Positions 20,332-60,741 of a DNA stretch of 64,000 nucleotides are shown piece by piece. Source of the DNA: an uncultured Candidatus Saccharibacteria bacterium (GTDB taxonomy: Bacteria; Patescibacteriota; Minisyncoccia; Phycocordibacterales; UBA9973); NCBI GenBank assembly GCA_964532495.1, contig CAZHJZ010000003.1:67747-131746 (forward strand), given 5' to 3'. The notes below the pieces were generated by a model, which had not been told where the DNA came from, did not search any database, and saw nothing but the letters and a program-made list of their open reading frames with translations. The position numbers and the translations under genes were made by a program. How positions within the stretch are numbered: position 1 is the stretch's first letter; each line of letters opens with the position of its first letter.

Positions 20332-20403
20332 GCACCCATGGTGAAATGGATATCACAACGGTCTTCGGAACCGTTATTGGGGGTTCGAATCCCTCTGGGT
20401 GCA
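20332..20403 (+). tRNA. tRNA-Arg (anticodon TCG)
   Basis: Cloverleaf: acceptor GCACCCA/TGGGTGC, anticodon stem ACGGT/ACCGT with loop CTTCGGA, T-arm GGGGG-TTCGAAT-CCCTC; CCA not encoded. Confidence 0.8.
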
Positions 20404-20451
20404 CATACATGAAAAAACCGCCTCCCGGGCGGTTTTTTCATGTATGTGCAC
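20399..20451 (+). terminator. 27-bp perfect hairpin overlapping the tRNA-Arg 3' end
   Basis: GTGCACATACATGAAAAAACCGCC-tcccg-GGCGGTTTTTTCATGTATGTGCAC; 22-nt arms (20399-20420/20430-20451) plus inner 5-bp GC stem. Confidence 0.7.
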
Positions 20452-20779
20452 CCAAGCTCGTTTGTCCCCTTCGGGACCGATGAGGCATCGCCTGCGCCTC
20501 TTGCGCGACCGAAAAGCACCCGCCACGGTAGCGGAGAATCCCTCTGCTGTCTTATTATATTATTTGACACTTCCCTGTCCCTTGTATAATTCTGTCAATG
20601 TCCTTTTAAAGTCCTTTTCCACATGATTTATCCTTGTATTTATTGGAAAATGGGGATAACCATGTGCATTATGTTGATAAGAGACACTAAATCTGTTGCC
20701 TAATTTGTACGTCTTTTATACATGATATCCTTATATACCAACGTATTTTACTTATTTTGACTAGAATATGGGTTTTCAA

Positions 20780-20979
20780 CTGTACATTCGTTTCACGTGA
20801 AACAGATTTAAAGTGTTACACATGAAACTTAAGATTAAGGACTCTAAGACATTTAAATACTAGATATCTAACAGATTGGGTAATACTGCAGGCTTAGGTT
20901 ATGTTTCATGTGTAACACTTAGATACATCTTTATTTAGTTTTTATATATATTTCATGCTGAATTGCTAGTATTTGTTTC
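20780..20979. promoter_or_regulatory. four operator-like inverted repeats GTTTCA-N2-TGAAAC upstream of yraN
   Basis: 20780-20793 GTTTCACGTGAAAC; 20805-20818 GTTACACATGAAAC; 20893-20906 GTTTCATGTGTAAC; 20964-20979 TGTTTCATATGAAACA; in a ~30% GC intergenic block. Confidence 0.5.
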
Positions 20980-21012
20980 ATATGAAACAGGTAAACGTAT
21001 TATATATAAGAT

Positions 21013-22041: not shown

Positions 22042-22069
22042 GTAAAAATACATACTTAGAAACACATAA

Positions 22070-22098
22070 AAACACCTTAAGACTTAAGGTGTTTTTAT
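22070..22098 (+). terminator. rho-independent terminator after mscL
   Basis: aaaacaccttaag-ac-ttaaggtgttttt. Confidence 0.8.
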
Positions 22099-22153
22099 GT
22101 GTTTGACGAATGAATTCAGTACTGTATAGTGAGTTTAAATAAAACTCGTTACT

Positions 22154-28084: not shown

Positions 28085-28094
28085 TCAAAAAAGA

Positions 28095-28127
28095 AAAACC
28101 GCCACTTGGGCGGTTTTTCTTTTTTGA
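28095..28127. terminator. bidirectional rho-independent terminator
   Basis: aaaaaccgccac-ttg-ggcggtttttcttttttg between convergent genes. Confidence 0.8.
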
Positions 28128-34382: not shown

Positions 34383-35648
34383 TTATTCGGCTGCCTCTGC
34401 TTCTGCCACAGCTTCGCCGGTAACTTCTGTTGGAAGATTTTCTGCTGCTGGTTCAAGCGCTTCTGGTTCGCCGGTTTTTGCATTGTCTACTTCGACAGAT
34501 TCGCCGTCAGATGAAACAACTTCGTCAGACTTTACGCCCTTGATGTCGATTCTCCATCCAGTAAGTTTTGCAGCGAGACGAACGTTCTGTCCGCCTTTGC
34601 CGATTGCGAGAGAGAGGACATCGTCAGTAACTTCAACGCTTGCTTTGTGTTCAGCATCGTCAACATTTACCGAAAGAATGTTCTGAGATTTTACTGGTGA
34701 AAGTGCTTTCGCAACATATGTCGCAGTATCCGGTGACCATTCAATGATGTCGATTTTTTCATTTCCAAGTTCGCTCATGACAGTTGTCACGCGAATGCCT
34801 TTTTGTCCGACGCATGATCCTACTGGATCAACATGCTCGTCGTTTGACCAGACCGCGATTTTTGATCGTGAGCCTGCTTCGCGGGCGATTGATTTGATTT
34901 CAACTGTTCCTGATGCAACTTCCGGAGCTTCGATAGCAAACAATGCTTCGATAAGCTTAGGATGCGTGCGGGACAATTTTACAGATACGCCTCGTGGCGT
35001 GTCTTCAACCTGGTAGAGGTATGCTTTGATGCGTTCGCCGCGGTTCCATCGTTCGCCAGGGATTTGTTCTTCGTAAGGAATGATTCCTGTTACGCGGTTG
35101 ATATCAACATAGAGAACTCCGCGCTCGAATTTCTGAACAACGCCGGAGATGATATCTCCTTCGTGTCCGCCGAATTCTGCCAAAACGCCTTCGCGTTCAG
35201 CTTCACGGATTTTTTGAATAATGACCTGTTTTGCAGTTTGAGCTGCGATGCGGCCGAAGTCATCCTGAGTTTCGAGCGGGAAGATGAGTTCGTCGCCTGG
35301 TTTTGCGCCTTTTTTGATGAGTTGAGCGTTTTCTACGAGAATGTGATGTTCTTCATTGAAGCGTACGCGTTCGTCGCCTTCGGGAGTTTCTGGTTCTTCT
35401 GCCGCTTCTTCGCCTTCAACCGGCATGCGGACTTCAGTAGGGTCGACAACGAGCTTAACCTGATAGAAATCGGTCGTTCCTGTCTCTTCGTTGAAACGGG
35501 TACGGACGATCTGACCGCGCTTTCCGTAGTCTTTCTTGTAAGCAGCCGCGAGTGCCTGTTCGATGGCCTCGAGGATCTTCGCTTTTGGTATTTTGCGTTC
35601 TTCTTCGAGCTGAGTCAAAGCAGAGTGCATAGTTTTGAGATCTAACAT
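34383..35648 (-). CDS. nusA: transcription termination/antitermination factor NusA
   Basis: NusA N-domain, S1 and two KH domains; acidic C-terminal tail. Confidence 0.9.
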   Translation of the reverse strand: MLDLKTMHSALTQLEEERKIPKAKILEAIEQALAAAYKKDYGKRGQIVRTRFNEETGTTDFYQVKLVVDPTEVRMPVEGEEAAEEPETPEGDERVRFNEEHHILVENAQLIKKGAKPGDELIFPLETQDDFGRIAAQTAKQVIIQKIREAEREGVLAEFGGHEGDIISGVVQKFERGVLYVDINRVTGIIPYEEQIPGERWNRGERIKAYLYQVEDTPRGVSVKLSRTHPKLIEALFAIEAPEVASGTVEIKSIAREAGSRSKIAVWSNDEHVDPVGSCVGQKGIRVTTVMSELGNEKIDIIEWSPDTATYVAKALSPVKSQNILSVNVDDAEHKASVEVTDDVLSLAIGKGGQNVRLAAKLTGWRIDIKGVKSDEVVSSDGESVEVDNAKTGEPEALEPAAENLPTEVTGEAVAEAEAAE

Positions 35649-35815
35649 ATGTAGTTTTGCGGTTTTTTCTTAGATATCCTTATTTTTTAAGGGTCTAATA
35701 GAAAACCAGACTATTAAGTTTTAATAAAAAGAGTCGGGCGAAACCGACCGACTAACGTAGGGAATATACCAAAAAACACCCTAAAAGGCAATCTGGTGCT
35801 GTTTTGGATTTGGGG

Positions 35816-35928
35816 GCGCTACGTCATACATCCTTCAGAGGCAACGCCATAAAACTTAGAGAAGTTTTTGGCTCCTGCTCGCGCCGTCGCGCTCCGCAAG
35901 TGCCTCTAAAGGATGTATGACGTAGCGC
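35816..35928. repeat. inverted repeat / hairpin A (28-nt arms, 27/28 complementary, 57-nt loop)
   Basis: GCGCTACGTCATACATCCTTCAGAGGCA (35816-35843) vs TGCCTCTAAAGGATGTATGACGTAGCGC (35901-35928). Confidence 0.8.
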
Positions 35929-35932
35929 TTTG

Positions 35933-35977
35933 ACATCTTCTCTCTATATTCCAATCATCCTCTTTACCGTAAGAGTG
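35933..35977. repeat. copy 1 of a ~50-nt dispersed intergenic repeat (second copy at 43634..43684)
   Basis: Identical 17-mer ACATCTTCTCTCTATAT and 15-mer TTTACCGTAAGAGTG in both copies, divergent middle with shared AATC. Confidence 0.75.
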
Positions 35978-36013
35978 TATTTTGATAATGAGTGGGGCGA
36001 TGAGATGCTCAGG

Positions 36014-36120
36014 GCGCTTGCACTATGTGGCCTTGGAAGGGGCTTGCGGACTGCAGGAGCAGGAGCAAAAATCTCTCAAGATTTTATGCGTACCCTTCCA
36101 AGGCCACATAGTGCAAGCGC
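36014..36120. repeat. inverted repeat / hairpin B (28-nt perfect arms, 51-nt loop)
   Basis: GCGCTTGCACTATGTGGCCTTGGAAGGG (36014-36041) vs CCCTTCCAAGGCCACATAGTGCAAGCGC (36093-36120). Confidence 0.85.
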
Positions 36121-36185
36121 ACAACGATAATATAAATTCAGCATTAAACAGAAAACAATACTGTATGTGATAGAAGTGAATATGA

Positions 36186-36203
36186 TTATCCACATTATCC
36201 ACT
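36186..36203 (+). promoter_or_regulatory. two tandem DnaA-box-like 9-mers
   Basis: TTATCCACA (perfect consensus, 36186-94) directly followed by TTATCCACT (36195-203). Confidence 0.4.
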
Positions 36204-36277
36204 CGCCAGCACTTTACCAATACATATATGTGATACAATATACTCACTATCACTTAATAGAGTATTTATAACTCGTT

Positions 36278-42419: not shown

Positions 42420-43529
42420 ATGACATCAATCACCAAAGCAAAAATCAAAAAAGGAACTCGAGTGCTTGTGCGTGCGGATTTCAATGTGCCGATTCAAAAT
42501 GGCAAAGTAGTTGATCCATTCCGCATTATTAAGACACTGCCTACGCTTTCGTATCTCCTCAAAAAAGGCGCGAAGGTAATCATCATTACTCATGCAGGTG
42601 AAGGTGACCAGACGCTTGAACCAGTTGCTGCTGTTTTGAAAAAGTATATTCCTGTCACATTTATTCCAGCGCTTTCGGGAGCGAGTGTGGACCATGCATT
42701 AGTAAACCAGAAAAATGGAACAGCTATCCTGCTCGAAAATCTCCGAAGCGAAGCTGGCGAGAAAAAGAACGATCCTAAGTTTGCGAAACAGCTTGCATCA
42801 TACGGAGATATTTTTGTGAACGATGCATTCCCGGTTTCGCATCGATCGCATGCTTCTCTTGTTGGTATTCCTAAATTCCTCCCAAGCTTTGCAGGATTCC
42901 AGCTCGAGCAAGAGATCAAGCATCTTGCTATTGCTCATACGCCGAAGCATCCATTTCTCTTCATCCTCGGCGGAAATAAGTTCTCTACCAAGATGCCACT
43001 ACTCAAGCGATTTGCAAAAACTGCTGATCATATCTTTGTGGGCGGAGCATTGCTCAATGATCTTCTCCGAGCGAAAGGATATGAGATCGGCATATCTGCA
43101 TTCGAAGACGGGTACAATGTAGACGCTATTTTGAAAAACAAAAAACTTATTCTTCCAATCGATCTCGTTGTTGCCAAAGGTTCAAAGTCTCGAATCTGTT
43201 CTCCCTACGAAGTTGCTCGCGATGAATCCATTATGGATGTCGGACCGGAGACGACCAAGTATATTGTTTCGGTGGCGAAAATTTCTAAATTTATTTTGTG
43301 GAACGGACCAATTGGATTTTATGAAAAGGGGTTTGATGAAGGTTCAAAAGCACTTCTTAAAGGCTTTGCTGCTTCAAAAGCAGATACGATCATCGGCGGA
43401 GGGGATACTGTTGAACTGGTGAACAAGCTCAAAATGGAAAAGAAATTCAAATTCGTTTCTACTGGAGGAGGCGCGACGTTGGACTTCTTGGTAGACGGAA
43501 GTTTGCCTGGTGTAAAAGCGCTGAAGTAA
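42420..43529 (+). CDS. pgk: phosphoglycerate kinase
   Basis: RADFNVP N-terminal motif, IIGGGDT C-terminal motif. Confidence 0.9.
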   Translation: MTSITKAKIKKGTRVLVRADFNVPIQNGKVVDPFRIIKTLPTLSYLLKKGAKVIIITHAGEGDQTLEPVAAVLKKYIPVTFIPALSGASVDHALVNQKNGTAILLENLRSEAGEKKNDPKFAKQLASYGDIFVNDAFPVSHRSHASLVGIPKFLPSFAGFQLEQEIKHLAIAHTPKHPFLFILGGNKFSTKMPLLKRFAKTADHIFVGGALLNDLLRAKGYEIGISAFEDGYNVDAILKNKKLILPIDLVVAKGSKSRICSPYEVARDESIMDVGPETTKYIVSVAKISKFILWNGPIGFYEKGFDEGSKALLKGFAASKADTIIGGGDTVELVNKLKMEKKFKFVSTGGGATLDFLVDGSLPGVKALK

Positions 43530-43633
43530 AAAGCCGGAACATCGTTCTCGGAGAAGCCTTCGCAGCACTTTATGATCGACTCGGCCCTAACCACAAAGGC
43601 CTCGCGCTCAAAAGTACTGCTCAGTCATCCTGA

Positions 43634-43684
43634 ACATCTTCTCTCTATATGTATTAACAATCGCCACTCTTTACCGTAAGAGTG
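43634..43684. repeat. copy 2 of the dispersed intergenic repeat (see 35933..35977)
   Basis: Same 17-mer and 15-mer cores; here embedded in the pgk/HIT bidirectional terminator hairpin. Confidence 0.75.
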
Positions 43685-43692
43685 GCGATTTA
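43658..43692. terminator. bidirectional terminator between pgk and the HIT gene
   Basis: atcgccactctt-taccg-taagagtggcgat 12-bp stem. Confidence 0.7.
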
Positions 43693-43744
43693 AAATATAT
43701 ATAGTACGGAGCGTTTGCCGAGAACTTATATTCCAGATATGTAA

Positions 43745-44122
43745 TTACACAAATAGCAGCGCGTCTCGGATCTTTTCGGCGATCAATTCGAATTCTTTTT
43801 CTTCTCCAGTTAGGGCAATGTCAGGCCAAACCCAGATATGGGCATGGAATATCTGCTCGCCATAGATCTGTGAGCGGATGATGTCGTGTCGAAAGACTTT
43901 TTGGAGGGCTTTGGCTATTTTACGGGCTGCTTCAAAGTATTCGCCAGCATTTGGGACATCCCAAACGAACCGATGGTGGTTCTTTGGTATTACCTGCACA
44001 TGGCCGGCTGCCAAAGGATGAATGTCTAAAAAGGCGATAAAATCGTTATCTTCATAGACTATATAGGCAGGAACCTCTCGGGCTACTATTTTGCAAAAGA
44101 TGCAATTTTCGTCGGTGATCAT
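43745..44122 (-). CDS. HIT-family (HINT-like) nucleotide hydrolase
   Basis: CIFCKI N-terminus, GHVQVIPK, histidine triad HAHIWVWP. Confidence 0.8.
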   Translation of the reverse strand: MITDENCIFCKIVAREVPAYIVYEDNDFIAFLDIHPLAAGHVQVIPKNHHRFVWDVPNAGEYFEAARKIAKALQKVFRHDIIRSQIYGEQIFHAHIWVWPDIALTGEEKEFELIAEKIRDALLFV

Positions 44123-52995: not shown

Positions 52996-53081
52996 GAAAC
53001 AGGTCTGAAAGACGAGAACTAAAAACACAGAGCGACGCCTGCGGCGTCGCTCTGTGTTTTATTATATCTATACTTTATTTT

Positions 53082-55541: not shown

Positions 55542-55562
55542 GAAGGTTACGTGTAATTAATA

Positions 55563-55598
55563 CAAAGAGCGCGCGGGCTTCGCCCGCGCGCTCTTTGT
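55563..55598 (+). terminator. rho-independent terminator
   Basis: aaagagcgcgcgggc-ttcg-cccgcgcgctcttt. Confidence 0.85.
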
Positions 55599-55604
55599 AT
55601 TTCA

Positions 55605-60686: not shown

Positions 60687-60698
60687 ACTTTCACAAAC

Positions 60699-60729
60699 AA
60701 AAAACCGCCACTCGGGCGGTTTTTTGTTT
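60699..60729. terminator. bidirectional rho-independent terminator
   Basis: aaaaaccgccac-tcg-ggcggttttttg; near-identical to the terminator at 28095. Confidence 0.85.
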
Positions 60730-60741
60730 GATGGTTGTGAA

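Follow-up and report, generated by a model that had tools for sequence, protein, structure and literature searches.

The closest described counterparts of the element reported here are the REPINs, extragenic sequences of ~100 nt that form a single long hairpin and occur in multiple copies, mostly downstream of genes; changes in one half of the hairpin are compensated in the other, and single-stranded DNA is presumed to be the form in which REPINs act (PMC3116915; PMC3733652). In the current analysis we have identified, upstream of nusA in a 64,000-nucleotide stretch of contig CAZHJZ010000003.1 (hereafter the window) from a member of the Paceibacteria (Patescibacteria/CPR), two copies of a previously undescribed repeat of ~110 bases that belongs to Paceibacteria and Kaiserbacteria, groundwater bacteria with tiny genomes. 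The genomes of Patescibacteria are about 0.6-1 Mb in size and have very little spare DNA, and to our knowledge descriptions of repeat families or of structured non-coding elements in this group are few. Our literature searches returned no earlier description of this element.

The two copies correspond to a pair of long hairpins, A and B, whose coordinates, pairing (27 of 28 and 28 of 28 positions) and separation by 85 nt are reproduced here as they stood in the initial annotation (Table 1). The folding energy of A and B on either strand is -71 to -78 kcal/mol, with z-scores of -9.9 to -11.2 against dinucleotide shuffles, and is equalled by none of 200 shuffles. The two had been regarded as independent. 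This view is not retained, since loop A shares ~80% identity with the reverse complement of loop B, and the inverted-repeat finder pairs 35863-35888 in loop A with 36049-36074 in loop B. When A is aligned to the reverse complement of B the loop is conserved and the stems are alike only at their ends (GCGCT at the base, CCTT..GG at the top). Judged from this alignment, A and B are paralogues, copies of one dispersed palindromic element in inverted orientation. The ORFs at 35930 and 35982, which had been set aside as artefacts, do exist, and both lie wholly within DNA that is absent from the relatives. A coding role of the cores was rejected, as inspection of the sequences reveals no conservation of the short ORFs among A, B and the copies of a related contig, L013.

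Table 1. Features of the nusA upstream region and of the second repeat locus, in positions of the window
Feature	Position	Strand	Description and basis
nusA CDS	34383..35648	-	
Leader terminator-like hairpin	35722..35749	-	GGTCGGTTTCGCCCGACT then CTTTTTATTA; conserved in relatives
nusA promoter	35763..35791	-	TTGCCT-17-TATATT, TG upstream of -10; conserved in relatives
Inserted block	35801..36185		~385 nt: A, rep1, B and 65 nt more; boundaries approximate; alignments with relatives
Element copy A	35816..35928	+ (core read)	arms 35816-35843 / 35901-35928, loop 57 nt; arms, fold, covariance model 74.9 bits
Copy A core	35844-35900		P2 ~35846-35872, P3 35881-35892
rep1	35933..35977	+	17-mer ACATCTTCTCTCTATAT and 18-mer CTCTTTACCGTAAGAGTG; weak hairpin, TACCGT loop
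Element copy B	36014..36120	- (core read)	arms 36014-36041 / 36093-36120, loop 51 nt; arms, fold, covariance model 61.5 bits
Copy B core	36042-36092	-	
Two abutting DnaA-type 9-mers	36186..36203	+	TTATCCACA, TTATCCACT
Divergent gene, 405 aa	36278..37495	+	no Pfam match; syntenic with 434-476-aa genes in relatives
rep2	43634..43704	+	27-nt-arm hairpin, 85% paired, same TACCGT loop as rep1

Further members of the family have been identified by searching metagenomes with a loop-only pattern derived from three copies (CATAAAA-N10-TTTT-N1-2-GCTCNNGCTC). Among the 43 stretches retrieved, about 20 (17 of them distinct) show features of the element that are no part of the pattern, namely the second hairpin P3 (GSSC-C(A)GTC-GSSC), an invariant T.CGC motif and flanking inverted repeats of 17-29 bp. 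With a covariance model trained on 18 copies, the copies score at least 51 bits and everything else at most 35 bits, matches to the pattern only reaching at most 25 bits. The model also revealed copies that do not match the pattern (L024b and the set L061-L064) and a divergent group, L066-L068, with scores of 23-35 bits (23 in L066, 35 in L067 and L068). Divergent subfamilies are under-sampled, because most copies were retrieved with a pattern taken from three of them. In L066 the divergent copy (L066:4020-4100) overlaps a 63-aa ORF (L066:3996-4187) between rplB and rpsS, which is probably not a gene.

Single contigs hold two to three copies. L013, whose NusA is 93% identical to that of the window, has one copy directly after the stop codon of tig and another, cut by the start of the contig, immediately upstream of the nusA -35. 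All the hosts that could be identified are Patescibacteria (annotated Paceibacterota, Kaiserbacteria or 'Patescibacteria group'), and the GC content of the element loci ranges from 37% to 65%. A stricter pattern, CATAAAANNTNGAGANNTTTTN{5,35}CCGCAAG, retrieved from genome contigs just two chance matches, in Oxyplasma and in a Desulfotomaculaceae MAG, one of which scores 15.5 bits with the covariance model, the other not being listed. Viral contigs scanned with both the strict and the loop-only patterns gave zero matches. No family of Rfam 15 matches the element at or above its gathering threshold, the only hits being generic long-hairpin miRNA precursor models far below it; hammerhead, twister and other known ribozymes, SRP, 6S and Y RNAs and retron ncRNA are without an Rfam match, and the core motifs of the hammerhead are missing from the sequence.

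Each copy is ~105-115 nt long and is comprised of an asymmetric core of 51-58 nt (~55 nt) carried on a long, almost perfect stem. The consensus of the core is (U)ACGCAU, P2, UGCUCNNGCUC, P3, U(S)CGCA(A)G when written as RNA and (T)ACGCAT, P2, TGCTCNNGCTC, P3, T(C/G)CGCA(A)G as DNA. P2 has the form AAAANNN, a 4-nt loop and NNNTTTT, and appears on inspection to be extendable by GCA/TGC around a bulged T; in P3 a C(A)GTC loop closes a stem of 4 bp. The core folds as a three-way junction with P2 and P3 as its two short hairpins. In an alignment of 23 core sequences pairing holds in 96.5% of the cells and falls to 35-54% once the partner columns are slid. Double changes are seen in 13 of the 14 pairs and amount to 73 cells against 21.6 in shuffles, a count reached in none of 500. 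These figures lean towards the structure, as the model had served to fit the alignment and the sequences are not unrelated. The slid controls and an independent count on a MAFFT alignment agree with the covariation result. One-sided (wobble) changes are confined to one of 314 core cells.

The stems show the same preference. Over 19 copies they contain 379 Watson-Crick pairs, one G-U, five A-C and seven other mismatches, with lengths of 17-29 bp that fall between 25 and 29 bp in nine copies. Their sequence differs from copy to copy, the inner ~10 bp being common within subfamilies and the outer stem unrelated. The cores of the copies following pilC (L018) and secY (L029) agree at 55 of 57 positions, and yet the arms of these two copies are unrelated. 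At the secY locus of L061, whose SecY is 90% identical, a diverged copy occupies the same place with different arms that are still paired at 17 of 18 positions and with compensated changes in P2 and P3, while an ordinary hairpin neighbouring the secY copy in the same spacer is ~75% similar between the relatives. Similarly, L016 and L021, which belong to one 680-kb contig, have 28-nt arms identical at 19 of 28 positions, and each pair remains near-perfect. Decayed stems are found in L052, L022, L024a and the internal copy of L013. We take such pairing by Watson-Crick pairs only as the principal argument for a structure of importance at the level of DNA, or else for arms that serve as templates of each other's renewal, and the near-total lack of wobble pairs is unusual for selection at the RNA level. 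These comparisons suggest that the arms may be rewritten or re-paired at copying and then decay. An origin of the arms by copying of the local ancestral flank was rejected, as BLAST of A and B against the loci of relatives matched the core only. An 8-nt sequence, GCACCAGA, is common to the L013 arm and the flank in the window; the other arm of L013 is lost at the contig end.

Between A and B lies a second small repeat, which the initial annotation had described as a unit of ~50 nt recurring at 43634. The recurrence holds, while the single unit resolves into two stretches of exact identity, 17 and 18 nt long (35933-35949 and 35960-35977 against 43634-43650 and 43667-43684) with different spacers, and the 17-mer is found in exact form at just these two places of the window. 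The second occurrence lies in ~210 nt of extra DNA (43529-43745) between pgk and the next gene; in L008 pgk and the gene following it are only 2 nt apart. Neither rep1 nor rep2 was found in the other loci compared, and the idea that this repeat travels together with the element was rejected for this reason.

The copies of the element are positioned at the edges of transcription units. Seven of them begin 1-14 nt after the stop codon of a gene with Pfam or annotation support (tig, rnj, pilC, secY, a DivIC-like gene, gyrA and nusG), all in the orientation termed forward, and L024b is a possible eighth, 6 nt after the stop of a putative 484-aa ORF. A T-run closes roughly half of the copies that adjoin a stop codon. 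Seven others, on the start or promoter side, are all in reverse orientation to the gene (window A, window B, L013, L067, L030, L040 and L052). Window A is 24 nt from the nusA -35, the L013 copy 0 nt from it, and the L067 copy 4 nt from the TTGACA-17-TAGTAT promoter of rpsS. In all 14 copies that could be called the 5' (P2) side of the core is towards the adjacent gene, in a sample that is small and partly non-independent.

Presence of the element among relatives is patchy. At the nusA locus it is found in the window and in L013 and is missing in L005, L008, L010 and L015; on the 3' side of tig it is found in L013 and is missing in L008, L015 and L005; on the 3' side of secY it occurs in relatives of 100% and 90% identity and is missing in those of 71% and 68%. 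Several assemblies break exactly at the element. The contigs L002, L003, L004, L013 and L014, independent assemblies from close relatives, start 33-149 nt upstream of nusA; with five such starts, that of L013 inside the element core, the repeat evidently breaks assemblies.

Another set of hairpins with variable stems has been observed at L038:537-625, L040:858-928, L042 (~2760-2840), L002:3190-3260 and L013:3455-3505. In the loops of this set GAGGAC, an inner hairpin and (GAGT)TCCGCAG recur, and the resemblance of this 3' motif to the CCGCA(A)G end of the main core suggests that they may be modular relatives of the main family. In the spacer between gyrA and a methyltransferase gene a block of ~250 nt, comprising the element and one of these second hairpins, is inverted in L038 with respect to L040, the flanking genes being collinear. 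The terminators at gene ends of the window are also unusually long perfect palindromes, with stems of 16-27 bp (20396-20454, 22060-22104, 28085-28127, 53022-53060, 55559-55601 and 60694-60730), one of these gene-end terminators having a 27-bp stem around a AAAAAACCGCC/GGCGGTTTTTT core.

A role of A and B in attenuation or antitermination in the leader of the nusA operon has in its favour that they lie within 170-470 nt of the nusA start. Such a role is now hardly credible. An attenuator is expected between the promoter and the start codon, with its hairpin followed by a U-run, and A and B both lie upstream of the nusA promoter and have no U-run on their 3' sides. In the alignment of the window with L005, L008, L010 and L015 the nusA promoter, the leader hairpin, the promoter region of the divergent gene and a DnaA-type box, TGTGGATAA, are conserved, and relatives with NusA 86-93% identical lack both hairpins and yet keep the promoter and the leader terminator; members of the family moreover adjoin many unrelated genes. 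Lying upstream of a conserved promoter, A and B are insertions and not structures of the nusA leader. The alignment is best read as the arrival of two copies of the element and another small repeat in a block of ~385 nt, missing from all four relatives, between the conserved box and the nusA -35. The attenuator arrangement is found instead in a separate hairpin at 35749-35732, present in all relatives examined and followed by CTTTTTATT. NusA autoregulation via a leader terminator is known in Bacillus subtilis, and this leader hairpin is the probable attenuator of that kind here. Equally improbable is the reading of the region as part of, or beside, the chromosomal replication origin, for which the two abutting DnaA-box 9-mers, present as noted initially, are the evidence. 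Across the window DnaA-box-like 9-mers are at chance density (18 observed against 15.9 expected), and the GC skew shows no switch at 36 kb. The box itself, read in nusA orientation, is invariant in the four relatives 0-40 nt upstream of the nusA -35, as fits a transcription-factor site; in the window it has been duplicated and moved ~385 nt from the -35. Its placement in the relatives identifies it as an ancestral promoter-proximal site and not an origin feature, and it may serve DnaA or another regulator acting on nusA or on the divergent gene. Elsewhere in the window, several palindromes of the form GTTTCAYRTGAAAC and a hairpin with 22-nt arms (20811-20920) occur in a 560-nt AT-rich non-coding stretch beside tRNA genes (20455-21012), together with three DnaA-box-like 9-mers, at 20615, 20651 and 20672. 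The stretch coincides with a local minimum of the cumulative GC skew and would be a better candidate for oriC than the nusA upstream region.

The remaining alternatives concern the family as a whole. It is possible, though less likely than not, that the element is an RNA module of benefit to the host at transcript boundaries. Transcription would run through it forward, so that the element would either form the 3' end of the message of the upstream gene or belong to a divergent transcript made from a promoter. The role of the long hairpin, capped by the three-way junction, would be to terminate transcripts, to insulate or stabilise them, or to offer a site for RNase III, and in the window A and B together would insulate two divergent promoters. 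The seven forward copies close after stop codons (with L024b as an eighth if its putative ORF is accepted), the T-run at the end of about half of these, the placing of the core 5' side towards the gene in all seven start- or promoter-side copies, four of them within 24 nt of a -35 or overlapping it, and the retention of copies with compensated changes at secY and after the DivIC-like gene are all consistent with such a role. It is weakened by the near absence of G-U pairs from core and stems, by the half of the stop-adjacent copies that have no U-run, and in the window by the lack of a U-run after A or B and by their location on the upstream side of the two conserved promoters, where no predicted promoter would transcribe them forward. 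A boundary role of this kind in RNA would be compatible with the mobile-element reading. An unlikely alternative is that of a small-RNA gene, in which the 25-29-bp stem would be an RNase III-type processing helix and the product either a three-way-junction RNA of ~55 nt or a guide-like variable duplex on a conserved handle. The clustering of stem lengths at 25-29 bp with hardly any mismatches, and a conserved and covarying core on a stem of free sequence, would suit it; several copies have stems of 17-19 bp or decayed ones, no associated protein gene is seen in the genome fragments, and the stem 20-mers of A and B have no matches in viral contigs, in what is a weak test for guide targets, or elsewhere in the window. 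More unlikely still is the version in which the element would be a hairpin-encoded RNA of a new type, whose three-way-junction handle would present the perfectly paired 25-29-bp duplex for processing, for instance by RNase III, to a guide-like or decoy RNA, serving an unrecognised effector of Patescibacteria, with the stem rewritten at each copying. We also consider it very improbable that the element is an inverton, with the 28-bp inverted repeats as recombination sites and a core that flips to switch a promoter. The opposite orientations of the A and B cores and the inversion of the element between L038 and L040 with collinear flanks could be so explained, but the segment between the arms is just 51-57 bp, and the known invertible segments are far longer. 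That inversion involves ~250 nt including the second hairpin and flank and not the core alone; the core has no promoter-like site, orientation is the same in independent assemblies (L029 and L046, L018 and L045), and no recombinase gene is seen beside the copies in the part of the neighbouring ORFs that was scanned.

The reading that we favour, with somewhat better than even confidence, is that of a mobile palindromic element that resembles the REPINs, is non-autonomous and acts through its structure in DNA. An enzyme from another locus would place further copies of such an element in intergenic DNA where transcription units begin or end. The structure of the element would most likely act as a hairpin of single-stranded DNA, perhaps in RNA too, and the stem would be renewed or re-paired on copying. 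The data show the membership of the family, the covarying core, the variable perfect stems, the patchy occurrence and the positions and polarity of the copies, from which the mechanism of mobility, an action in DNA and any effect on transcription are inferred. Against mobility stands the fact that no transposase or partner gene was identified in the genome fragments examined, nor was an excision or insertion junction seen directly. The 8-nt flanks of 19 copies contain no direct repeats of the kind left by target-site duplication. The description as MITE-like given earlier stands in so far as the copies are dispersed, multiple and present or absent among relatives; the lack of conserved terminal repeats and of target-site duplications separates them from classical MITEs. 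Copies maintained with compensated changes at one locus (L029 against L061 at secY, and L032 against L024b) look like the result of selection on a useful structure, which makes the element less like a purely selfish repeat, and the strict polarity in 14 of 14 copies suggests a strand-specific role coupled to transcription.

Mobility of the element, if confirmed, would point to a way of copying, unknown so far, by which perfect arms are made anew; a functional element would constitute a new transcript-boundary signal in a major uncultured lineage. In practice it breaks metagenome assemblies at housekeeping loci and can be miscalled as short ORFs or operon leaders.

Comparison with known systems places the element near several of them. 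With the MITEs and the Correia and ERIC elements it shares a short, non-coding, hairpin-forming and intergenic nature and presence or absence among strains, and like them it may affect neighbouring transcription; theirs are conserved terminal inverted repeats and target-site duplications, whereas the element has neither. The miniature elements of the IS200/IS605 group have small end hairpins comparable to P2 and P3, no target duplication and strand-specific behaviour. The element differs from them in that neither a TnpA or TnpB relative nor a conserved target tetranucleotide was seen in the fragments examined, and its enclosing perfect stem of 17-29 bp is without a counterpart there. The bidirectional intrinsic terminators of the same genomes are likewise perfect palindromes of 16-27 bp at gene ends, and some stems of the element begin with an A-run and end with a T-run as they do. 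The terminator loops are of 3-5 nt, in contrast to the conserved structured core of 51-58 nt that forms the loop of the element, and A and B lack the T-run. What the element has in common with the REPINs is its extragenic location, its multiple copies and a hairpin of ~100 nt in which changes are compensated. REPINs are doublets of REP sequences and are mobilised by RAYT (Y1) transposases; no RAYT came to light in the genome fragments seen here. The copy number of the element looks low, with two to three per contig seen, and its stem ends carry no GTAG or CGTC tag as REP sequences do, CGTC occurring only as the P3 loop of many copies. In REPINs the REP arms are conserved and the spacer is variable, whereas here the centre is conserved and the arms differ even within one genome (A against B; L016, L021 and L046). 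Placed at the edges of transcription units with a fixed polarity, the element reverses the usual pattern of palindromic repeats, in that conservation falls on the structured centre, and the arms, for all their perfect pairing, vary freely in sequence.
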